Shown one piece after another: positions 49,209 to 63,706 of a stretch of DNA of 63,706 nucleotides. Below the pieces are notes generated by a model. That model was not told the DNA's origin. It searched no databases and saw only the letters and a program-made list of their open reading frames with translations. Origin of the DNA: Desulfobacterota bacterium AH_259_B03_O07. Its GTDB lineage: Bacteria > Desulfobacterota_D > UBA1144 > Nemesobacterales > CSP1-2. Each line of letters starts with the position of its first letter. Position 1 is the stretch's first letter. The stretch is from assembly GCA_027717645.1 (NCBI GenBank), contig JALLOG010000002.1, positions 1 to 63,706 on the forward strand, read 5' to 3'. The position numbers were made by a program, and so were the translations under genes.

Positions 49209-50399
49209 CTAGATCAATCCCTTTAGTTTGTTAAGTATCAGCCTGGCCTCATTATCCGGAGTGAGCTTCCCACTGTCGATCTCAAGATCAAAGGGAATAT
49301 CCCTATACATCTGCATGAGGTGTGCCAGTGAATGACCCGGAGGACGATCACCTCGCTCTCTTTCGTGCTTTTCCAATATACTAATATCTGCAATAACTGA
49401 GACCCAAAGCACAGGATGGTCTTTAAATAATATAGCAGCCTCATCATAGATGTCCTTGTACACAAATATCTGGTCTGAGACCACATTTATACCGATTTGG
49501 GACATTGAGGCGACTGCACAGAGTTGGCCACCCATGAATTTGCGAGCAACTGGTCCCAGTTGCTGTCTCATATATCTAGTAGGATTATCAGCATTAGGAC
49601 CTGGGGGCATGTAATATAATCCGAGCCTGCCATCGGGTGGATGTTTAAAATGTTTCATGCTCTCAGGGTCTAGTGGAGTGTCCATGTATCGTTTTGCCAT
49701 TCCTTCTATAATTGTATCCACACCGAATTGTATGAAGGGTTCTTCAGCTAATTCCTGTATAGTACGGCAAAGCGTTGATTTCCCAGCGCTACCCGGCCCA
49801 GCAAGAATAACAATATGACCCGGGCTCTCATTTGGAAATGGCATTAAACGGGGAACCCACCTAGCCCTGGGTTGTCCCTTCATAGGTCGGTTCTCCAGAT
49901 AATCAAGAAGCTTGTTGGCATTGTCTTCAACGGAGTTTGAGCCACCATCAAGAGAGTAACCATAATCTAAATCGGTATACATTTCAGAGTTGAGCTCCTG
50001 GGCAGGCCCCTCAGGTTGTTGACCAAATTCCTTCTCACGTTTAACGAGAATCTCTTCCGAACATTTAACCTCAACCCAAATAACATCCAAATCATCTAAA
50101 AACGTCTTACATTCATCTAGCCATCCACGATCAAGTATAGTATGGTCAACAAGCAGATCACAGCCACTCCTGGCCAATCCTGAAATCACGCCATGAAGTG
50201 CCCTTATATATAATCGATCAACAGTTTTACTGAGATGGTGCTTCTTAGCAGATTCAACAGGTTCAACAATATTGAAAAGTTGGTCAATCCCAACCGCATA
50301 ATAAGGCTTATCGGCGACTGACTGGACTTTGTTTATGATTGAGGTTTTACCCGCGTGTGGCGGACCATTTAAAATAACGACGGTGCCCGCAATACTCAT
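49209..50399 (-). CDS. tandem fusion of two chloramphenicol-phosphotransferase-like (CPT) P-loop kinase domains
   Basis: Two Walker A loops (ILNGPPHAGKTS, ILAGPGSAGKST). Each is followed by a CPT-like core (VIWVEVKCSEEILVKREKEFG; VLWVSVIADISILEKHERERGDRPPG). Confidence 0.7.
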   Translation of the reverse strand: MSIAGTVVILNGPPHAGKTSIINKVQSVADKPYYAVGIDQLFNIVEPVESAKKHHLSKTVDRLYIRALHGVISGLARSGCDLLVDHTILDRGWLDECKTFLDDLDVIWVEVKCSEEILVKREKEFGQQPEGPAQELNSEMYTDLDYGYSLDGGSNSVEDNANKLLDYLENRPMKGQPRARWVPRLMPFPNESPGHIVILAGPGSAGKSTLCRTIQELAEEPFIQFGVDTIIEGMAKRYMDTPLDPESMKHFKHPPDGRLGLYYMPPGPNADNPTRYMRQQLGPVARKFMGGQLCAVASMSQIGINVVSDQIFVYKDIYDEAAILFKDHPVLWVSVIADISILEKHERERGDRPPGHSLAHLMQMYRDIPFDLEIDSGKLTPDNEARLILNKLKGLI

Positions 50400-54559: not shown

Positions 54560-54782
54560 AATATTTACCTCCTTTTGATTAGTTTTAGGTGTTATTCTCA
54601 TTGGTTATTATAATATTGCACGAATAAACGATTTTCTAGTTTATTTTAGGTACCTGAGCTCAGAAAACTTGACGAAGACCTTAATTCTTCATATATGATT
54701 TTGGTACTTATAGAATAAACACAAAAATTAATATTATGTGGCAGGAGCGTTAAGGTCCGCCGCAGATTCAGGAGGGTCCACC

Positions 54783-55109
54783 ATGCAAGCCAAAAATCTT
54801 GAAATATTCAATGAAATGCCGTTCTTTTTTTGGGTCAAGGATGAGGAGGGGAGGTATATATGGGTCAATCGAGCCATTTCTCAAATGGCCAAGGAGGATA
54901 TTATCGGAAAAACCGACCACGAATTACCCTGGGCTGATAACGCCGATGCCTTAAGAGCGGTCGACAAGCAGGTCTTGGAGACGGGAAAGCCCAGTTTCCT
55001 CCACGAATACGTGGATAAGCCCAGTAAAGCTACCCTAAGTGTTTGTAAATTTGTGGGGGAATTTGACGGCAAAAGATGTGCCTTTGGAGTTTCGTTCATT
55101 ATCGAGTAA
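54783..55109 (+). CDS. stand-alone PAS domain protein
   Basis: FFFWVKDEEGRYIWVNRAISQMAKEDIIGKTDHEL is PAS-like. GGAGGG lies 7 nt upstream of ATG 54783 (ORF opens at GTG 54738). Confidence 0.6.
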   Translation: MQAKNLEIFNEMPFFFWVKDEEGRYIWVNRAISQMAKEDIIGKTDHELPWADNADALRAVDKQVLETGKPSFLHEYVDKPSKATLSVCKFVGEFDGKRCAFGVSFIIE

Positions 55110-55135
55110 TAGGCTCAGAAAAGGAAGAAAAAGGA

Positions 55136-55198
55136 TTGACAACTTTTTTCTGTAAAATTGTTGGAAAGTATGAATCGACTTAATAATATGTGTTGGAC
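55136..55198 (+). repeat. AT-rich junction module, short form (ends GTTGGAC at the start of cassette 1)
   Basis: GACAACTTTTTTCT directly abuts GTAAAATTGTTGGAAAGTATGAATCGACTTAATAATATGTGTTGGAC. These are the same arms as the 249-bp repeats, without the central ~180 bp. Confidence 0.7.
55161..55189 (+). promoter_or_regulatory. candidate outward-facing promoter in the junction module
   Basis: TTGGAA, 17 nt, TAATAT, about 35 nt upstream of the helicase ATG. The same geometry occurs at 57118-57146 and 63621-63649. Confidence 0.3.
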
Positions 55199-55225
55199 CG
55201 AACGCCCGGAACCGGAGGGAAGTCC

Positions 55226-56890
55226 ATGGTAGAGGACGAACCGCAGAGTGCGGAAGAGGCTGAACTCAGAGCTGCCATCGAGGCCGTGCTGAGTTCCCCC
55301 AGCGACAAGAAACTGGTGATTGCCGGCCCGGGTACCGGCAAGACAACGCTCTTCGAGCAGCTGCTTGAACTTGCGCCTGGACACCCCGATCAGCGGATTG
55401 TCCTCACATTTGTCAACAACCTCAAGGACGATCTGAATGACGATCTAGGCGGACTGGCTCAGGTTTTCACACTTCACTCGTACTGCCTGGGCCTACTGCA
55501 ACGCGACCCGGCACTCAGAGGTTCGCTTTCGCCAGACTTTCGCTGCTGTCCCGGGATTGCGAGCATCATCGCAGAAGACTGGGAGGTCATCACGCAAAGC
55601 GACGCCCCTAAGTTTGTTGGTGAAATGCGCGCTCTCTCAGAGGAGAACCAGATTCCGTTCTACCTAGCTCGCGGCGAGTACTACGACGCGGTCGATTTTG
55701 ACGACACCGTGTACCGGGCGTACGAGGGTCTATCCTTTGGGCGTGCCACACCCGAGAGCTACGACCTTGTCCTAATAGACGAGTACCAGGATTTCAACGC
55801 GCTTGAGGCGGGCGTCATCGACGCTTTGGCTGAGCGTAGCCCCATCTTGATTGCCGGTGACGATCACCAGGCTCTCTACAGTCAACTGCGCGATGCGAGT
55901 TGGGACCACATCCGGCTCCTCAGCAAAGCTGGGGAGTACGATGTCTTCAAGCTCCCGTTCTGCATGCGCTGTCCCAAGGTCGTGGTCGATGCAGTCAACG
56001 ACGTTCTGACCAAGGCCGAAGAGCTGGGCAGGCTCGAAGGGAGGATCGAGAAGCCCTACAAGCACTTCCCTCCCGCAAAGGGAGCCGACAGGGCGAAGTA
56101 TTCCAAGATTGTGCACGTAGAGCCGTCGGTCCAGAGACAGGATGCGAACTACATGGGGCGCTATCTCGCGCAAGCGATTGCTCAAATCACCGAGGATGAG
56201 ATTAAGACAGCTGCGCACGGCGGCTACCCCGCGGCGTTGGTCATCGTGGCGCAGCCCTACCGCGATCAAATCGTCAGTCATCTTGAAGCCGCGGGGTACG
56301 TTGTCGACACCAGGCGCAACTCCGACAGCAAGCTCAATCGGGAAGCGGGCATATCAATTCTGAAAGTGGATCGGGTCTCCAATCTTGGATGGCGAATCGT
56401 TCTCGGCGCAGACGCCCCTTCCTTTCTCAAGGACGCTATTGTCACAACCGCAGATTGCACGAGCCGTCTTGTCGATGTAGTCCCAGATGAGTACCGCGAG
56501 CGCGTGCTGGCCGAAGTTGATGCGTACGAGCCACCAGAAGAGGTACAGGCTGAGGCAGAGACTCCCGCTTCATCGGATGTCCCTTCTGTCAGAGTGACTT
56601 CCTTCGAGGGAGCCAAGGGCCTCTCCGCACAGCACGTGTACATCGCAGGCCTGCACAATGGCGAATTGCCGCATGATCCGGCTTCAATCAAGGACCTCGA
56701 GATCTGCAAGTTCGTGGTAGCGCTCACCCGCACACGCAAGAAATGCACTCTGATCCGCACCCGGAACTTCGCTGGCAACTGGAAGACGCCATCCTCCTTC
56801 ATATCGTGGATAGACCCTGCTCGTCTGGAGTTCATCAAGGTTGACGCACAGTATTGGAAGCAGCAGGCGGAAGAGGCATCTGAGAACTGA
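55226..56890 (+). CDS. UvrD/PcrA-like superfamily 1 helicase (compact, about 555 aa)
   Basis: Walker A AGPGTGKTT, Walker B LIDEYQD, motif III AGDDHQALY, motif V-like FEGAKGLSAQHVYIAG and motif VI VALTRTRKK. GGAGGG lies 6 nt upstream of ATG 55226 (ORF opens at GTG 55190). Visibly GC-rich relative to the flanks. Confidence 0.85.
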   Translation: MVEDEPQSAEEAELRAAIEAVLSSPSDKKLVIAGPGTGKTTLFEQLLELAPGHPDQRIVLTFVNNLKDDLNDDLGGLAQVFTLHSYCLGLLQRDPALRGSLSPDFRCCPGIASIIAEDWEVITQSDAPKFVGEMRALSEENQIPFYLARGEYYDAVDFDDTVYRAYEGLSFGRATPESYDLVLIDEYQDFNALEAGVIDALAERSPILIAGDDHQALYSQLRDASWDHIRLLSKAGEYDVFKLPFCMRCPKVVVDAVNDVLTKAEELGRLEGRIEKPYKHFPPAKGADRAKYSKIVHVEPSVQRQDANYMGRYLAQAIAQITEDEIKTAAHGGYPAALVIVAQPYRDQIVSHLEAAGYVVDTRRNSDSKLNREAGISILKVDRVSNLGWRIVLGADAPSFLKDAIVTTADCTSRLVDVVPDEYRERVLAEVDAYEPPEEVQAEAETPASSDVPSVRVTSFEGAKGLSAQHVYIAGLHNGELPHDPASIKDLEICKFVVALTRTRKKCTLIRTRNFAGNWKTPSSFISWIDPARLEFIKVDAQYWKQQAEEASEN

Positions 56891-56906
56891 CCCATAAGCA
56901 CTGCAT

Positions 56907-57155
56907 GTTTTCGGGGTCTGGCGTGAATATTCATTCAACTATTTTCTATCAATTTTAAACAAGCGACAGCTATTCTTTTGATACAACCTTTTCTAATTTT
57001 ATCTTGCTTTATATGATTTTAAGAAGATTTAGGCCCAGCTTGTTGAGTCTCGATCCTTTTATGTGTAAAGTGCCTAAATTACTGTTTGTAATTTGATCAG
57101 AGTATATTGTAAAATGGTTAGAAAGTATGAATCGACTTATTAATATATGTTAGGC
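56907..57155 (+). repeat. 249-bp AT-rich junction repeat, copy 1 (ends GTTAGGC at the start of cassette 2)
   Basis: Differs at 5 positions from 63410-63658. Partly complementary arms ATTCAACTATTTTCTATCAATTTT (56933-) and AAAATGGTTAGAAAGTATGAAT (57111-). Confidence 0.9.
57118..57146 (+). promoter_or_regulatory. candidate outward-facing promoter in the junction repeat
   Basis: TTAGAA, 17 nt, TAATAT, about 30 nt upstream of the GTG start at 57178. Confidence 0.3.
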
Positions 57156-57177: not shown

Positions 57178-57834
57178 GTGAAATCTGAATTTGAAGAAGG
57201 ATCAATAGTATTCAATATTGACAGGCCCTTTACTCTAAGAGATCTCGCTGGCCCATGGAGCTGGGTAGCAAATCGTTATTACTGGTTCGTATTTGATGAA
57301 CTCTTTATGGATTACTATATTGAGACGTACAAAAATGGTAATAATCCAACAAACATAATTACTTACGGGTTAGATAAAGTTGCAGGGCAACTCGAAATTA
57401 GTCTAGAAAAAACAAGTGTTGCTTTCCTCGTTACGAGCGCCTCTTCCGGAAGTATTCTTCTTAAAGTGTCAGGTGTATATAAAGCGCTTAAGAGTTTGAC
57501 GGCTTGGCTACCCCTCTATGGAAAGTGGGTACAAGAAAAGGGAGAAATTGATATTGCTACAGAAGTAAAACGCTCTGAAGCTCTGAATGAAATAACTAAA
57601 AACTTTGTTCGGGCGGGTATTCCAGAAGATGTTGCTTTCAGCATGGCTTATGAGCGCTTGTATCGCGGCTGGCCTGATTTTTATTCGCCGGAAGGAATGG
57701 GGTTGGCCGAACATATTACATCGAGTGAAGTTGAAAATACCGGAAATGTTCTAACTGTGAAAGAAAGGGAGATTCATGCCATTTCACCTAGAGAAAAGGG
57801 TGTTAATGTATTTGAGAAATCAGATAAAAAATAG
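57178..57834 (+). CDS. hypothetical protein (218 aa), cassette 2
   Basis: GAGAGGGG RBS upstream of GTG 57178. AT-rich. The stop TAG abuts attC R''. No motif recognised. Confidence 0.6.
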   Translation: MKSEFEEGSIVFNIDRPFTLRDLAGPWSWVANRYYWFVFDELFMDYYIETYKNGNNPTNIITYGLDKVAGQLEISLEKTSVAFLVTSASSGSILLKVSGVYKALKSLTAWLPLYGKWVQEKGEIDIATEVKRSEALNEITKNFVRAGIPEDVAFSMAYERLYRGWPDFYSPEGMGLAEHITSSEVENTGNVLTVKEREIHAISPREKGVNVFEKSDKK

Positions 57835-57924
57835 CCTAACAATAGGCTTGAGAGGGACTTGGTGCCGCGGCGTTCTGCTTCGCTACACTCTGCATCCCCA
57901 AGCCCCTCAGCCTAAGCGTTAGGC
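57834..57924 (+). mobile_element. integron attC site (91 bp)
   Basis: R'' is GCCTAAC (57834-57840) and R' is GTTAGGC (57918-57924). The left arm GCCTAACAATAGGCTTGAGAGGGACTTGG matches the reverse complement of the right arm, GCCTAACGCTTAGGCTGAGGGGCTTGGG. Confidence 0.85.
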
Positions 57925-58629: not shown

Positions 58630-58758
58630 GCCTAACAATTCATTCACCCGACAAAAGGCGCCAGTTCTTTAAGTTCGTTAAGTGCTCTCTCAAAGTTTAT
58701 TTGGAGATTTTAAGATAAGTGCAGTCAACCCCTTTTGCGGGTGATGACAGTGTTAGGC
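58630..58758 (+). mobile_element. integron attC site (129 bp)
   Basis: GCCTAACAATTCATTCACCCGACAAAAGG ... CCCCTTTTGCGGGTGATGACAGTGTTAGGC. The arms are reverse-complementary with bulges. The left arm resembles the aadA-type 59-base element. Confidence 0.88.
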
Positions 58759-58780: not shown

Positions 58781-60604
58781 ATGAGGATATACTGGACTCG
58801 AAAAATGCGAAACATCATTTACGCCTTAGCCATCATCGTAGGTTTCTTTGCTGCGGACTCAGGTTGGGCTGACACGGCTGACTATGTATTCACCAATGGC
58901 AAGATCTACACCGTCAACAAAGCCCAACCGTGGGCGGAAGCCGTTGCGGTCGATGGCAACAAGATCGTCTATGTCGGCAACAACGCAGGTGCAGCCAAGT
59001 TCAACGGCAAGGGCACCAAGTCAATCGACCTCAAGGGCCGCTTGATGCTGCCCGGCTTCATTGAATCGCACATTCACATCTCTCTCGGCGCGTCGACGAA
59101 ATCGGGAGTGATCTTGGCAACTTCGGATAACCTGGAGAAGGTGCTGGAGAAGGTAAAGAAATACGCTGACGAGCACCCCAAAAAAGAGACGATTTTTGGC
59201 GCTTCCTACGATGCATTCATGTTCAAAAAGTCGAACGGGCGGTACAAGGAGCCAAACAAAGCGTTGCTTGATAAGATCGTTCCAGATCGTCCAGTTTTGC
59301 TGCTGGATCACACCGCCCATTCGGCCTGGGTGAACTCCAAGACCTTAGAGTTGGCGGGCATCACCAAGGACACGAAGAACCCCTACGGCGGAGAGTACAT
59401 CCGCGATAAAAAGAATAAGGAGCTTACCGGGGCGATCAAGGGAATCCCGGTCTACAATTCAGTCTCCGATAAAATCAATGCGATCACCGTCGAATCGATT
59501 CAGGCCTCCCTCCCAGAGGTGCTTAAGAACCTGACGGAGTTCGGCTTTACCACGGCCATAGACATGGGAATCGCCACAGCGAGGGAGGCCGCTTACAAAG
59601 CGATAGTCAAGCTCGACAAAGACGGTATGCTCCCGCTTCGCATCAGCATGACCCACTTCGTCAACACGCCCGACCTGGCAAAGACGGCAGTCGAGACACT
59701 CGACGGCTATGCCAAGAAGTACAAATCCGACCACGTCTGGATTGACACGCTGAAGATCACGATCGACAGCGTGCTCGAAAACCAGGGGGCTGCCATGCTG
59801 AAGCCCTACAAAAAGAAAAACAAGGATGACAAGGATAACGATGGCATTCTCTATTTTGACCACGAAGAGATGAAGAAAATGGTCATGGGAGCAGCAAAAA
59901 AGGGATACAACGTGGTCGTTCACGCCATCGGTGACCGCGCCGTCCGAGCGGCACTCGATGCCGCGGAAGCACTACGAAAGGCTGGCTACAAGGATACGCG
60001 GTTTATCATAACGCATGCGCAAATGGTGAATCCAGATGACCGACCACGCTTCAAGACACTCGACGTGACCGTGCAGACTACAGGCAACTGGGCCATGCAG
60101 CAGAAGGTTTACCTGGAGTCCCTCGAGGAGGGACGATATAACACCTTGCAGTTCCCGTTCCGTTTCTGGGCGGACAATGGCGTCAACATAGCGTTGGGAG
60201 CGGACTGGCCGGCGACTCCGGGTGGATTCAAGCTTGGCGTGAATCCGTTTAACAACATCTACACATCCATGCATCGGCGGCCTCCGGCAGCTATCGTCTC
60301 CAAAATGGGATCGACCAATGAACCGCTGCCTCCCGTGGATCAAGTGCTGACGCTCGAAGAAGCCGTCTGGGCTTACACGATCGGGTGCGCTAAGATGCTG
60401 GGGATCGAAGATCAAATCGGGTTGATCGAGGTGGGCAAAATGGCCGATATGATCCTTCTCAGCCAGAACCTCTTCGAAATCGCCCCCCCAGGACATCCCG
60501 AAGACCAAGGTTCTGGTCACGATGATGGACGGCAAGATCCTCTACGGTCGTCTATAAACTCAAAATTCGAAGAAAGCGATCTCGTGGATCTCAGAACGGC
60601 CTAA
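58781..60604 (+). CDS. secreted amidohydrolase-3 family metal-dependent hydrolase (3' end frameshifted), cassette 4
   Basis: Signal peptide. HxH motif FIESHIHISLG. After the C7 run at 60483-60489 the +1 frame reads QDIPKTKVLVTMMDGKILYGRL-stop (60555-60557), a family-typical C-terminus. The current frame instead stops inside attC R''. Confidence 0.8.
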   Translation: MRIYWTRKMRNIIYALAIIVGFFAADSGWADTADYVFTNGKIYTVNKAQPWAEAVAVDGNKIVYVGNNAGAAKFNGKGTKSIDLKGRLMLPGFIESHIHISLGASTKSGVILATSDNLEKVLEKVKKYADEHPKKETIFGASYDAFMFKKSNGRYKEPNKALLDKIVPDRPVLLLDHTAHSAWVNSKTLELAGITKDTKNPYGGEYIRDKKNKELTGAIKGIPVYNSVSDKINAITVESIQASLPEVLKNLTEFGFTTAIDMGIATAREAAYKAIVKLDKDGMLPLRISMTHFVNTPDLAKTAVETLDGYAKKYKSDHVWIDTLKITIDSVLENQGAAMLKPYKKKNKDDKDNDGILYFDHEEMKKMVMGAAKKGYNVVVHAIGDRAVRAALDAAEALRKAGYKDTRFIITHAQMVNPDDRPRFKTLDVTVQTTGNWAMQQKVYLESLEEGRYNTLQFPFRFWADNGVNIALGADWPATPGGFKLGVNPFNNIYTSMHRRPPAAIVSKMGSTNEPLPPVDQVLTLEEAVWAYTIGCAKMLGIEDQIGLIEVGKMADMILLSQNLFEIAPPGHPEDQGSGHDDGRQDPLRSSINSKFEESDLVDLRTA

Positions 60605-60717
60605 CAAGGCGGTCGGGCTGACGCCCACCATGGCGCTTCGACCGAAGTTTAGAGTAATTTCTAAATTTATCTCAATAGCAATGCTGATGTTGGGCGCTGC
60701 TCACCTCTGCGTTATCT
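60599..60717 (+). mobile_element. integron attC site (119 bp, variant R')
   Basis: R'' is GCCTAAC (60599-60605) and R' is GTTATCT (60711-60717). The arms TAACAAGGCGGTCGGGCTGACGCCCACC and reverse-complement TAACGCAGAGGTGAGCAGCGCCCAAC are partly complementary. Confidence 0.65.
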
Positions 60718-61110
60718 AGCTTATTTGCCAGTGGATACATGGAGCCTAGGAAATAGCCCAGTCTTTAAGGCAAGGGTCTTTCCAACTCAACCCCCGGTCC
60801 AATTGGATTGGGGAAGTCTAAGTGATTTCTCAGCAACACTTCCTCCGTGGGAAAGTTTTTAGATATCGTTCCCGCCTTCTTCTGGATTCCAAATCGAGTT
60901 TTCACCGCAATCCGGTGTCGTGCAGCTACCAAATCCTAGCAATGGCCTTACAATCGATTTCCCAAATGGCGGGTCTATCTCTTTTCCTTCGCCGTGCACA
61001 CCAGTCTCGCCCTGGACACCAAAGAAGATTCGTGTGAACGGCGATCGACTTAAGGTTCGAGCTCGATCACAATAATCAAGAGAGCTTTGATAGTGTTATT
61101 AGTCTTGAGC

Positions 61111-61249
61111 GCCTAACAAGCCGTTGAACACGGACTCTCGCTCTCGCCGGTTAACGGCGGCGAGAAACAAACATACTTTGTTTGATATTATCAGAATAAA
61201 TTATACAATGGTAAAAAAGTATGTGTCATCTTAATAATTAATGTTAGCC
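61111..61249 (+). mobile_element. hybrid cassette junction: attC-like left half plus AT-rich junction module
   Basis: GCCTAACAAGCCGTTGAACACGGAC and hairpin CTCGCCGGTTAACGGCGGCGAG. From about 61168 a diverged copy of the junction module follows, ending AATGTTAGCC (61243-61249). Confidence 0.55.
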
Positions 61250-61272
61250 GACCAGACTGAAAAGGAGCCCAT

Positions 61273-61914
61273 TTGACGAGACCAACCAAGCTTGATCCTC
61301 GGTACGTGAACCTCCGCGTCATCCTTCCCTACGCGCTCAAGGTGGAGGCAGTGGAGAAGGCGGTGGCTGAAACGTACCGGCTTTTTCATGGGTTCAATGA
61401 CTTCCTTGAGAGTGGTGGTTTCCGTCCATTGGAGGAATTGCTGCTGGGTAACTTGCTCTCCGGGATTATCTCGGAGTTTCTAGTGAAGAATATCGCGCGA
61501 GCTTCTGAAACGCTGGAGGCGAACATGAAGGTGGGAGGGCATCCCGACCTTCTCCCAAGGGGCCATTACTCATCGAATCTGGTTTTGAAGGGCGACGAGG
61601 GAATCGAAATCAAGTCATCGATTCAACGTGGCGGTTGGCAGGGGCACAACCCGGAGGACTGCTGGCTGATGGTGTTTCGCTATGCGATTGGCTAGCAGGG
61701 AAAGTGTGAATCTGTACCGCTCACTTTTCTTGAGATTCTCTGTGCCAAACTTGACCGATCGGATTGGTCGTTTTCAGGTCGCAAGGGCACTTCACGCAGG
61801 ACACCTACGGCGTCCATAACGGCGTCTGGTGTCGAGAAGCTTCGGAGCAATTTTCTCTATCGACTTCCCGGTGTCGGAATCGGCCGTCACCGCGACATTC
61901 TGGCAGAGCCGTGA
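61273..61914 (+). pseudogene. PD-(D/E)XK restriction endonuclease with in-frame amber codon
   Basis: AAGGAG RBS upstream of TTG 61273. Catalytic-like GGHPDLLP...EGIEIKSS. TAG at 61693-61695 is followed in the same frame by 72 more sense codons (…PLTFLEILCAKLDRSDWSFSGRKGTSRRTPTASI…) up to TGA 61912-61914. Confidence 0.65.
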
Positions 61915-61943
61915 GCCTGAAAGATCGTATTTTGATACTGTGT

Positions 61944-62933
61944 TTAGCTGAACAGGCTTGGCTCCACACTCCCGGCGTTCACCAAAGGGCGAGACGAACG
62001 GTCCTTGGGTTCCCCATTTGGAACCAGAGCTGCCAGTTTCGGAATTGCTGATCTTGCGATGTCGAAAAAGTCTGGGTCGCTCTCGATTCCAATGCTTATG
62101 TAGCCTACGGCGCACGCTGCGGCGATGGTCGAACCCCCGCCCATGAAGGGGTCAAGCACGACACCCTCTCTAAGAGGCAAGGCTGCTCGCAAAATATGGC
62201 GCATAAAGCCCTGCGGTTTGAGGGAGGGATGCGGAGCGATGTCGCGTTCAAGGGGACGCGTGGGAGAGCTTCGGATAACATCGTAGAAAGGTTGTTCCGA
62301 GCTAACCCTGCGAAGCCCGCCTGTCTTCCACTTGCGCAGGTTGTCCTGAACGCGACCCTCGCAAGGTTTTCGGAAGAGTCCCCATGGTTCCCAGCAAGAT
62401 CGGGGCATGACAGTAACGTCCTTGAACTCGTCGTGAGCGTTCTTTGGGCGGTCTCCACCACGGAGAGTTTGAACCAGGCGGATGATCTCACCACGCTTCT
62501 CAAAACCGCTCTCAATGAGTGCCATGTAGACCAGTTGTGAAAGAAGCGGATTCGTGGCTATGAAGACGTGCCCACCGGGAACGAGCACCCGAAAAGCGCG
62601 CGCCCCCCACTGCCGAAAGAATTCTGTGAGTTGCCGTTTTTCGTCATTGCTGAGAATAGTGAACCTGGGCAGTGGTTGGCGGACGCAGCCGCCGATGGCA
62701 GGAGGGATTCGCCAAACACCGCCAAGTCCGCGCCGGAGCTTATGTTTTTCTTTGGCGGTGTACTCTTTCAAACCGTAAGGCGGATCCGTGACGATGGCGT
62801 GGATACTGTTAGGTTGGCGGTGCTCCATCCACTCGAAGCAATTCCCCTGAACAAGCTCATAGGAGGCTGCTACGCTTGGCTGGTAGATCGCCCGAGGCTC
62901 AGCGACTGCCTTTGCGAGTTGGGGGGGGGTCAT
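61944..62933 (-). CDS. beta-class DNA N6-adenine/N4-cytosine methyltransferase
   Basis: Motif IV TDPPY precedes motif I LDPFMGGGST (the beta permutation). Convergent with the endonuclease, with a 29-bp gap. Confidence 0.88.
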   Translation of the reverse strand: MTPPQLAKAVAEPRAIYQPSVAASYELVQGNCFEWMEHRQPNSIHAIVTDPPYGLKEYTAKEKHKLRRGLGGVWRIPPAIGGCVRQPLPRFTILSNDEKRQLTEFFRQWGARAFRVLVPGGHVFIATNPLLSQLVYMALIESGFEKRGEIIRLVQTLRGGDRPKNAHDEFKDVTVMPRSCWEPWGLFRKPCEGRVQDNLRKWKTGGLRRVSSEQPFYDVIRSSPTRPLERDIAPHPSLKPQGFMRHILRAALPLREGVVLDPFMGGGSTIAAACAVGYISIGIESDPDFFDIARSAIPKLAALVPNGEPKDRSSRPLVNAGSVEPSLFS

Positions 62934-63231
62934 TCTCCTCGTAATCGTCGCGCCGGAAGGTTTTTCGCAAGACCGCCGGGGCTTCGGTTGGGTGCTGCCA
63001 CAAGATCTCCCGAACGTCTCGCGGCAGGTGACCTGCCAGGATTAGGAGCGAGCTAGGATCTGTCGCATAAACTTTGGCAAGGTGCCGGACTGTCGACTCG
63101 GCTGGCCGAGCCTTGCCGCCCTCAAGACGGGAAATGTACCCCTTCGAGACTCGAAGTCTCTTCGCTACATCGGCTTGGATCAACCCGCATGCAAGGCGGG
63201 CCGCCCTAATGTGCTGCCCAAACTGTATCAT
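62899..63231 (-). CDS. XRE-type HTH controller (C) protein of the R-M module
   Basis: HTH GLIQADVAKRLRVSKGYISRLEGG. Start assigned to MIQFGQHI (the ORF track extends it spuriously into the repeat). Overlaps the methyltransferase start by 35 nt. Confidence 0.7.
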   Translation of the reverse strand: MIQFGQHIRAARLACGLIQADVAKRLRVSKGYISRLEGGKARPAESTVRHLAKVYATDPSSLLILAGHLPRDVREILWQHPTEAPAVLRKTFRRDDYEENDPPPTRKGSR

Positions 63232-63409
63232 GCAGAATTTCTCCGCAATGCTGGTGGTAATCTTCGAGCGCTGCATGCAAAGCAATATAACCGTGTTAAC
63301 TATTTTAGTCAACCATGTTCCTTGCTGCTTCCGGAGTGTCCAGCGGCGGCTTGCACCACGGCAGTCGGCTAACAACAAACGGTTGCAGCGGACGGCGCTA
63401 TGCGCCGGT

Positions 63410-63658
63410 GTTTTTGGGGTCTGGCGTGAATATTCATTCAACTATTTTCTAACAATTTTAAACAAGCGACAGCTATTCTTTTGATACAACCTTTTCTAAT
63501 TTTATCTTGCTTTATATGATTTTAAGAAGATTTAGGCCCAGCTTGTTGAGTCTCGATCCTTTTATGTGTAAAGTGCCTAAATTACTGTTTGTAATTTGAT
63601 CAGAGTATATTGTAAAATGGTTAGAAAGTATGAATCAACTTAATAATATATGTTATGC
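63410..63658 (+). repeat. 249-bp AT-rich junction repeat, copy 2 (ends GTTATGC at the start of the next cassette)
   Basis: Differs at 5 positions from 56907-57155. Preceded at 63368 by the attC-like left half GGCTAACAACAAACGGTTGCAGCGGAC. Confidence 0.9.
63621..63649 (+). promoter_or_regulatory. candidate outward-facing promoter in the junction repeat
   Basis: TTAGAA, 17 nt, TAATAT, upstream of ATG 63677. Confidence 0.3.
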
Positions 63659-63676: not shown

Positions 63677-63706
63677 AATGAATGAACACGAGAAAATAAA
63701 CTACCG
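63677..63706 (+). CDS. 5' end of the next cassette ORF (partial, runs off the window)
   Basis: AGGAACAAGGGA followed by ATG 63677 (MNEHEKINY...). Only 10 codons are visible. Confidence 0.35.

Follow-up and report, generated by a model that had tools for sequence, protein, structure and literature searches.

Nested AT-rich sequences at missing or truncated attC sites in an integrase-less cassette array: candidate delta-attI-type cassettes in a Thermodesulfobacteriota chromosome

Integron arrays are usually annotated through their attC hairpins, and the locus described here raises the question of what may occupy the boundary between two cassettes when that hairpin is damaged or gone. The DNA in question (contig JALLOG010000002.1 of assembly GCA_027717645.1; the whole stretch analysed, 63,706 nucleotides in length, is termed the window) derives from an environmental Thermodesulfobacteriota MAG. 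A preliminary description of it reported a 249-bp AT-rich junction repeat and offered four possible explanations, without committing itself to any of them: a host-specific long attC variant, an ORF-less promoter cassette, att duplications produced by tandem island accretion, or a MITE captured inside attC sites. None of the four provides the best fit to the observations assembled below, and the reading that is favoured here, in which the repeat forms the end of delta-attI-type cassettes, was not among them.

The cassette array and its junction repeats

Positions 1-54,000 of the window correspond to chromosomal DNA of 38% GC, with the dcw cell-division cluster and other housekeeping genes, and are followed, from approximately 54.7 kb to the end of the contig, by a plus-strand cassette array of 42-58% GC in which Pfam assignments identify a small PAS-domain gene, a UvrD-like helicase, a 218-aa protein with no assigned function, a SnoaL-like protein, an amidohydrolase and an RM module. 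The array is chromosomal and contains no integrase gene: a Pfam search of 29 ORFs found no tyrosine recombinase in the contig up to its end at 63706, and a tblastn search of the contig with IntI1 (a query that was itself confirmed to be a tyrosine recombinase) returned no match at E<=1. Neither an intI gene nor a proven attI was found in the window or in 33 fetched loci. No identical proteins are on record for the methylase, the amidohydrolase, the tail-collar protein or the 218-aa cassette protein, and look-ups of a neighbouring short-chain dehydrogenase led to two contigs (L002 and L010), both of which stop short of the array. In the host region shortly before the array, an ORF at 49209-50399 encodes two tandem chloramphenicol-phosphotransferase-like (CPT) kinase domains. 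The features of the array that are needed below are as follows (J0 to J3 denote its four unusual junctions).

54783-55109, plus strand: small PAS-domain gene (Pfam), which accompanies the J0 module in three assemblies
55110-55192, plus strand: J0, a spacer after the PAS gene and a 44-nt module (from 55151); crossover G at 55192, helicase cassette from 55193 (TTGGAC)
55193-56905, plus strand: UvrD-like helicase cassette (ORF 55226-56890) without an attC of its own; identified by Pfam, edges from homologous loci L003 and L004
56906-57149, plus strand: junction unit copy 1 (J1), in place of the whole attC of the helicase cassette; defined by repeat search and by homology to L003
57106-57149, plus strand: conserved 44-50-nt 3' module, from an alignment of seven instances and a fuzzy search
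57834-57924, plus strand: canonical attC of the cassette after copy 1 (R'' GCCTAAC, R' GTTAGGC); bottom-strand fold z -3.8, internal positive control
58630-58758, plus strand: canonical attC, second positive control; bottom-strand fold z -4.8
61111-61164, plus strand: left half and terminal hairpin of an attC (R'' GCCTAAC), right arm missing; sequence and fold indicate an R''/R' pair and no L box
61165-61243, plus strand: J2, a diverged form of the last 80-88 nt or so of the unit; crossover G at 61243, RM cassette from 61244 (TTAGCC)
61244-63366, both strands: RM cassette, with a restriction endonuclease on the plus strand and an HTH-methyltransferase on the minus strand
63367-63408, plus strand: truncated attC of the RM cassette (R'' GGCTAAC, left arm, terminal hairpin CGGCGC-TAT-GCGCCG), its right arm replaced by copy 2
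63409-63652, plus strand: junction unit copy 2 (J3), with four mismatches to copy 1, behind the truncated attC; next cassette at 63653 (TTATGC)

The near-identical pair of sequences with unrelated flanks that had been described was recovered by a repeat search as 250 nt at 98% identity (56906-57155 against 63409-63658), with five mismatches between the copies (at 56912, 56949, 57134, 57140 and 57153) and a longest shared exact run of 184 nt (56950-57133). Because the fifth mismatch lies past the crossover G (57149 in copy 1 and 63652 in copy 2), within the TTRRRY of the next cassette, the repeat proper is 244 nt in length and contains four differences. Both copies end, as had been claimed, exactly at a cassette start on a GTTRRRY-like core (GTTAGGC and GTTATGC, respectively), and the cassette that begins at 57150 with TTAGGC carries the core GCCTAAC as the R'' of its own attC at 57834. 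At their left edge the two copies have TG/TTTT in common (more fully, TG/TTTTYGGGG; here and below a slash marks the boundary or crossover point). The ends of the unit are not complementary to each other, and its flanks share only the TG on the left and are otherwise unrelated.

The 27-codon ORF reported within the repeat (57013-57096) is present and lacks a ribosome-binding site, and its two identical copies supply no evidence of conservation. Minus-strand ORF starts within the left end of the unit (MNEYSRQTPKT / MNIHARPRK) were considered as a remnant of intI; they have no convincing ribosome-binding site and are too short to be assessed. At 63393-63417, the terminal hairpin of the truncated attC and the T-run that opens copy 2 together form an intrinsic-terminator-like structure on the plus strand.

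Two additional junctions in the array contain shorter forms of the same sequence, a recurrence that the preliminary description missed. The last 44 nt of the repeat recur at 55151-55194 (91% identity) and at 61202-61245 (70%), and a sensitive blastn search lengthens the latter match to 74 nt at 74%. The array therefore contains, within 8.6 kb, four junctions of this type (J0 of approximately 44 nt, J1 of 244 nt, J2 of approximately 80-88 nt and J3 of 244 nt), all of which end TG/TT, and their fragments (approximately 44, approximately 74-88, 244 and 244 nt) are nested from a common 3' terminus. Within the terminal module of copy 1 lie a -10-like TAAAAT (57110-57115), a direct-repeat-like GTTAGAA at -32 (57117-57123), the L-box-like CTTATTAA (57136-57143) and the crossover G. 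An older junction before the PAS gene was also considered; a possible degenerate one, at approximately 54700-54753, aligns weakly.

Loss and truncation of attC

A classical attC forms a bottom-strand hairpin with R and L boxes, spans 57-141 nt, and carries the inverted R'' (RYYYAAC) and R' (GTTRRRY) cores of one site. The junctions described here are built differently: J0 and the 244-nt unit have no complementary R'', and J2 and J3 borrow theirs from a truncated attC. Predicted single-strand folds of the unit, on both strands, were no better than those of shuffled sequences (z -0.24 and -0.11); the corresponding values were -1.66 for the 3' 91 nt of the unit and -0.29 for J0, as compared with -3.8 and -4.8 for the canonical attCs. 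J2 folds well (z -4.1), because its surviving R'' pairs with the new R', yet it possesses no L box. The assertion that the repeat is not a classical attC is thus borne out both by the missing R''/L'' partner and by its folding, and on the same two grounds the suggestion of a host-specific long attC fails. The arms of about 22 nt that had been proposed do pair in the minimum-energy fold, although the fold of the unit as a whole does not exceed that of shuffled sequence.

What has been lost can be read from homologous cassettes. More than 900 homologues of the helicase, from many phyla, show how widely this cassette is distributed. In two loci (L003 and L004, at 90% amino-acid identity) the cassette begins identically, with G/TTGGACCGAACGCC, and carries at its other end a 60-nt attC of the canonical type (R'' GTCCAAC, R' GTTAGAC). 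The copy in the window ceases to be homologous to L003 16-20 nt past the stop codon of the helicase, just before R'', and is followed by the 244-nt unit, which replaces the attC of this cassette. The RM cassette likewise shares its start, TTAGCC, with a homologue (L007), and the homology reaches R''; the attC of this cassette is reduced, in the window, to R'', the left arm and the terminal hairpin, after which the unit begins. The R'' at 63367, GGCTAAC, is the exact reverse complement of the start of that cassette at 61243 (G/TTAGCC), which confirms the attC-like left half reported before copy 2. The hybrid site reported at 61111 is also real, by sequence and by fold, and is built like that at 63367; both are cut directly after the terminal hairpin. 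The original statement that the repeat replaces or extends attC therefore holds in both of its parts, with replacement in the helicase cassette and extension of a truncated attC at 63367 and also at 61111.

Several further observations on these cassettes and their homologues may be recorded. In L003 (449-960), a locus from another metagenome, as in L004, a segment of 510 nt that is unrelated, devoid of ORFs and 31% in GC precedes the helicase cassette, exactly at G/TT; in L003 this segment lies between genes of approximately 60% GC, and upstream of it is a type I R-M specificity subunit gene with no visible attC. The segment may represent a second, independent AT-rich junction of a non-attC kind. 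In a Nitrospirota MAG (L005, 10001-14000), the helicase gene directly follows glutamate synthase genes and precedes toxin-antitoxin pairs, has neither a G/TTGGAC boundary nor an attC, and resembles a domesticated or decayed cassette. The RM cassette of the window appears degraded: its endonuclease gene (61273-61911) has a premature stop at 61693-61695, with an alignment in a single frame to a 204-aa homologue at 90% identity, and its HTH-methyltransferase gene (61944-63280) is split by a frameshift near residue 117, whereas homologues of the latter are single proteins of 427-454 aa. In an ENA contig (L006, 2894-7228), the RM module lies between fragments of 664 and 45 aa of a gene with a TGase_elicitor domain, into which it appears to have been inserted, possibly as a cassette at a genomic attG-like site. 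Finally, the amidohydrolase cassette (60599-61164) contains two R''-like GCCTAAC cores, at 60599 (overlapping the stop codon) and at 61111, separated by approximately 450 nt of ORF-less DNA, such that one cassette or two may be present; the site at 60599 gives a poor fold (z -0.95) and lacks a clear R'.

A conserved module and the explanations for it

As to the copy number of the repeat, which the preliminary description had proposed to establish, sensitive blastn found no further copies in the 54.7 kb of host DNA, and the module is rare in public data, with one match in GTDB representative genomes (L001, at a cassette junction), none in JGI metagenome contigs and none in viral contigs. In total, seven instances are available from four independent assemblies (four in the window, and one each in L001, L008 and L009); all seven end TG/TT, and their right-hand partners are six different cassettes. 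In L001, which was located by a scan of the GTDB representatives for the pattern of the module, the 50-nt module (94-96% identical) is preceded by 420 nt of AT-rich DNA of unrelated sequence and followed by two canonical cassettes. L008 and L009 were reached through close homologues of the PAS protein, and carry its gene and the module followed, in L008, by the same helicase cassette as in the window and, in L009, by a different cassette that encodes a guanylate cyclase and possesses a canonical attC. The PAS gene of L009 (835-1200) is interrupted, being called at 74 aa with a stop near 961, and is an apparent pseudogene, and the module after it is intact.

Wherever a right-hand cassette could be checked, through its 3' end or a homologue, its opening hexamer is exactly the reverse complement of its own R'' (GCCTAAC at 57834, GGCTAAC at 63367, GCATAAC at L001:936, ACCCAAC at L009:2596 and, for the helicase, GTCCAAC at L003:2674), and the right edge of the module is therefore a crossover point of an integron integrase. 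Across assemblies the module is 91-98% conserved over 44-50 nt, within flanks that are unrelated. The DNA upstream of the 50-nt module in L001 is unrelated to the 244-nt unit, and at most one such context can therefore be the original attI region; the behaviour of a portable site appears, from these alignments, to be confined to the last 45-50 nt. The module is joined at exactly G/TT to many canonical cassettes, replaces a known attC and is not hairpin-like. A second family of junctions, 'B' (TCCKTATAATGGAWAG/TT, which precedes the PAS gene in L008 and L009 and the helicase in L003), is not relied upon here, as it probably reflects promoter resemblance: in more distant PAS homologues the same TGTATAAT occurs as an ordinary promoter.

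The closest precedent is provided by the unusual cassettes of class 1 and 2 integrons that are termed delta-attI-type, in which 14-18 nt or 244 nt (delta-attI2 -238) of attI take the place of attC at R'', and which IntI1 is able to excise and insert; the key example is aadB-delta-attI2 -238 (Gonzales Machuca et al. 2026, PMC12901181), and earlier work on such cassettes (Partridge 2000/2009) is cited there. The junctions in the window resemble them in several respects. The attC is gone or replaced, with a breakpoint at or near R'' (as seen in the helicase cassette relative to L003, and in the RM cassette), by a fragment that is not hairpin-like; in all seven instances the last base of this fragment is the crossover G, and the next cassette continues from there with its TTRRRY; and the fragments are of varied length, derive from one sequence and share a 3' end, with the published 244-nt fragment equal in size to the unit described here. 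They differ from the published cassettes in that their sequence is unrelated to attI1 or attI2 and no resident intI or attI is known; in their location on an environmental Thermodesulfobacteriota chromosome rather than a clinical plasmid or transposon; and in the presence of four sites within 8.6 kb, two of which are hybrids with an attC left half.

The arrangement of the module also recalls that of attI1, which is a double-stranded site (as the module putatively is) with a conserved left arm, a variable right side and overlapping promoters. Both have an R box (GTTRRRY) at the crossover and an inverted L-like box a few bases upstream (in the module, CTTAWTAA at -13 to -6), as well as a direct GTTR repeat at -32 relative to the crossover G, which corresponds to the spacing of DR1 and in the module forms part of a GTTRGAA box, so that the whole resembles an IntI-binding layout. 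The attI1 sequence used for this comparison was confirmed by a 100% match to at least 5000 plasmids. The two are dissimilar in sequence; the module, unlike attI1, lacks a second direct repeat at -51, is not beside an integrase gene (none of its copies adjoins intI within the contig, which ends at 63706) and occurs in several copies inside the array. The combination of one left arm with varied cassettes at G/TT, in which the PAS gene and module lead into the helicase in the window and L008 and into the cyclase in L009, amounts to attI-like behaviour.

On balance, we consider it somewhat more likely than not that the 244-nt repeat is the longest of a set of nested fragments of one AT-rich, double-stranded, attI-like target of IntI, and that the cassettes ending in such fragments are of the delta-attI type, since the fragments occupy the positions at which attC hairpins would be expected. 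The nested set would then reach to approximately -44, approximately -88, -243 and -243 nt from the crossover G, and its conserved last 44-50 nt would constitute the functional site, composed of an R box with the G/TT crossover, the L-box-like CTTAWTAA and the GTTRGAA box at -32. We infer an origin from attI, rather than observe it, because no source attI was found beside an intI gene; the fragments would stem from such a site, in preference to a promoter-proximal genomic attG. They would be products of an aberrant excision with one end at a secondary site, upstream within the attI region, and the other in the attC of the first cassette or close to it. The TG/TTTT left edge could be such a secondary crossover site. 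IntI would presumably still recombine the fragments, and the two copies, at 98% identity, would permit RecA- or IntI-mediated loss of the intervening 6.5-kb block. Several observations sit less comfortably with this attI-like reading: no intI gene occurs in the window or in the 33 fetched loci, the DNA upstream of the module in L001 does not resemble the unit, the module is rare in public data, the -35 element described below is not conserved in J0 or L001, the identical left edge of both copies fits a self-contained ORF-less unit about as well, and the hybrid forms, in which an attC left half is joined to the module, are unlike those predicted by the published model of recombination between an L box and R''.

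Matches to a sigma-70-like consensus are present in the module on the plus strand (TTGTAA-18-TAAAAT and TTGATA-16-TACAAT). The TAAAAT/TACAAT hexamer is conserved, with a -35-like hexamer at a distance of 16-18 nt in the longer copies; the -35 is not conserved in J0 or L001. On the strength of these consensus matches, the module probably carries a promoter that reads into the next cassette, and the fragments may thereby restart transcription inside the array. The sequence TGTAWAAT is not enriched in the window, and no LexA box was seen by eye. Promoter-like sites also occur on the minus strand, in J2 (61200-61229, ATGACA-18-TATAAT, 11 of 12 matches) and in the unit (63609-63638, TTGATT-18-TACAAT); these point away from the downstream cassette, as the promoter of intI in an attI region would.

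Among the alternatives to the delta-attI-type reading, one holds that the module is a promoter region of the host that was used as an attG, with insertion at the GWT of a resident promoter and with pieces subsequently carried off by imprecise IntI excision 'outside the insertion point'. Promoter-proximal insertion at GWT, and excision at nearby genomic sites, have been shown experimentally (bioRxiv 10.1101/2022.09.11.507474), and an attG shares with the module a double-stranded, non-att target, a G/TT crossover near a promoter and the possibility that imprecise excision mobilises adjacent DNA. No integrase lies beside any copy of the module, the array, headed by the PAS gene and J0, adjoins host genes directly, and the more distant PAS homologues, which have TGTATAAT-type promoters in their vicinity, are ordinary genes of the chromosome, all of which would suit such an origin. 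The attG is, however, defined only by its GWT consensus, whereas the module is repeated within the array and maintains 91-98% conservation over 44-50 nt in unrelated flanks, together with an attI1-like spacing, as would be expected of a specifically recognised site; moreover, attG events keep the attC of the inserted cassette intact, unlike the junctions described here. This explanation is regarded as unlikely. The possibility that the 244-nt unit is instead a self-contained, ORF-less promoter cassette with G/TT on both sides (TG/TTTTYGGGG ... ATATG/TT), inserting through IntI at secondary sites that include the inside of attC, comes closest among the four explanations offered originally. It accounts for the shared left edge and the TG before it in unrelated flanks, it has parallels in documented gene-less cassettes with promoter activity, which are likewise ORF-less, AT-rich, situated within arrays and equipped with promoter-like elements directed toward downstream cassettes (PMC6557892; PMC11014356), and IntI1 is able to use a second, atypical core within the delta-attI2 -238 fragment (PMC12901181). 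Those gene-less cassettes, however, are bounded by genuine attC sites, whereas the unit has none and substitutes for that of the preceding cassette, which is absent or truncated rather than intact; GTTTTCG and GTTTTTG are poor cores; and the shorter nested copies (44 and approximately 88 nt), with other left edges, cannot be the same cassette. It is accordingly judged improbable.

The remaining explanations carry far less weight. An assembly artefact or chimera, arising from the chaining of strain variants with the repeat in common or from erroneous extension of the contig through it, is suggested by the end of the contig at 63706, a mere 48 nt past copy 2 (63409-63658), and by an exact core of 184 nt that exceeds usual k-mer sizes in a MAG; against this, the copies have four internal differences and distinct flanks on both sides, and the module is found at cassette junctions in three other independent assemblies. 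Such an artefact, which is very improbable, could alter the number of copies per array but not the nature of the element, because those three assemblies show the same type of junction. Mobile elements are known to be drawn to attC: IS1111-attC elements and group IIC-attC introns target it. Both are listed in PMC12901181. An element of the MITE or IS-derived kind that targets attC, or again a host-specific long variant of attC, would be AT-rich, repeated and located in or beside attC remnants, as the unit is, and yet appears exceedingly improbable, given that terminal inverted repeats, target-site duplications and an attC right half after the element are all lacking, that no copies occur in 54.7 kb of host DNA, that Rfam detected neither an intron nor another RNA family, and that the unit has no R''/L'' partner and folds no better than shuffles. 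The MITE of the preliminary description is further contradicted by partial copies that are nested from the 3' end, and its suggestion of tandem island accretion explains neither the lengths of 44, 88 and 244 nt nor the absence of any recombinase. As an RNA element, the unit gave nothing in Rfam at the gathering score and, at E<=1, a chance match to sagA (23 bits against a cut-off of 60); a group IIC-attC intron was rejected because there was no meaningful Rfam match and 244 nt without an ORF is far too small.

Consequences for arrays and their annotation

The element is best accommodated as a delta-attI-type cassette end, of which the sequence of the site, its four copies within 8.6 kb, the hybrid attC/attI-like forms and the probable internal promoter would be new. 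To our knowledge, the replacement of attC by an attI-like fragment is rare and has so far been described in clinical integrons only. Annotation that depends upon attC hairpins misses such junctions, and cassettes are therefore merged or arrays ended early.

If the module is an active attI-like site, delta-attI-type cassettes extend beyond clinical class 1 and 2 integrons, and an array that lacks an integrase gene can contain several entry points for new cassettes, each of which probably supplies a promoter through which distal cassettes that would otherwise be silent (the helicase, the RM module and others) are reactivated. The hybrid junctions, in which an attC left half is joined to the module, may record a pathway of aberrant recombination that has not been described. 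A broader proposal, to which we assign only an outside chance, is that cassettes ending in a double-stranded, promoter-bearing, attI-like site are a regular second architecture of environmental arrays, as opposed to a rare clinical accident. Were that so, genes (including those that never had an attC) would be mobilised by IntI through a double-strand pathway, integrase-less arrays would be seeded beside ordinary host genes, and promoters would be found throughout long arrays; a second architecture of this kind would bear on how new cassettes originate.
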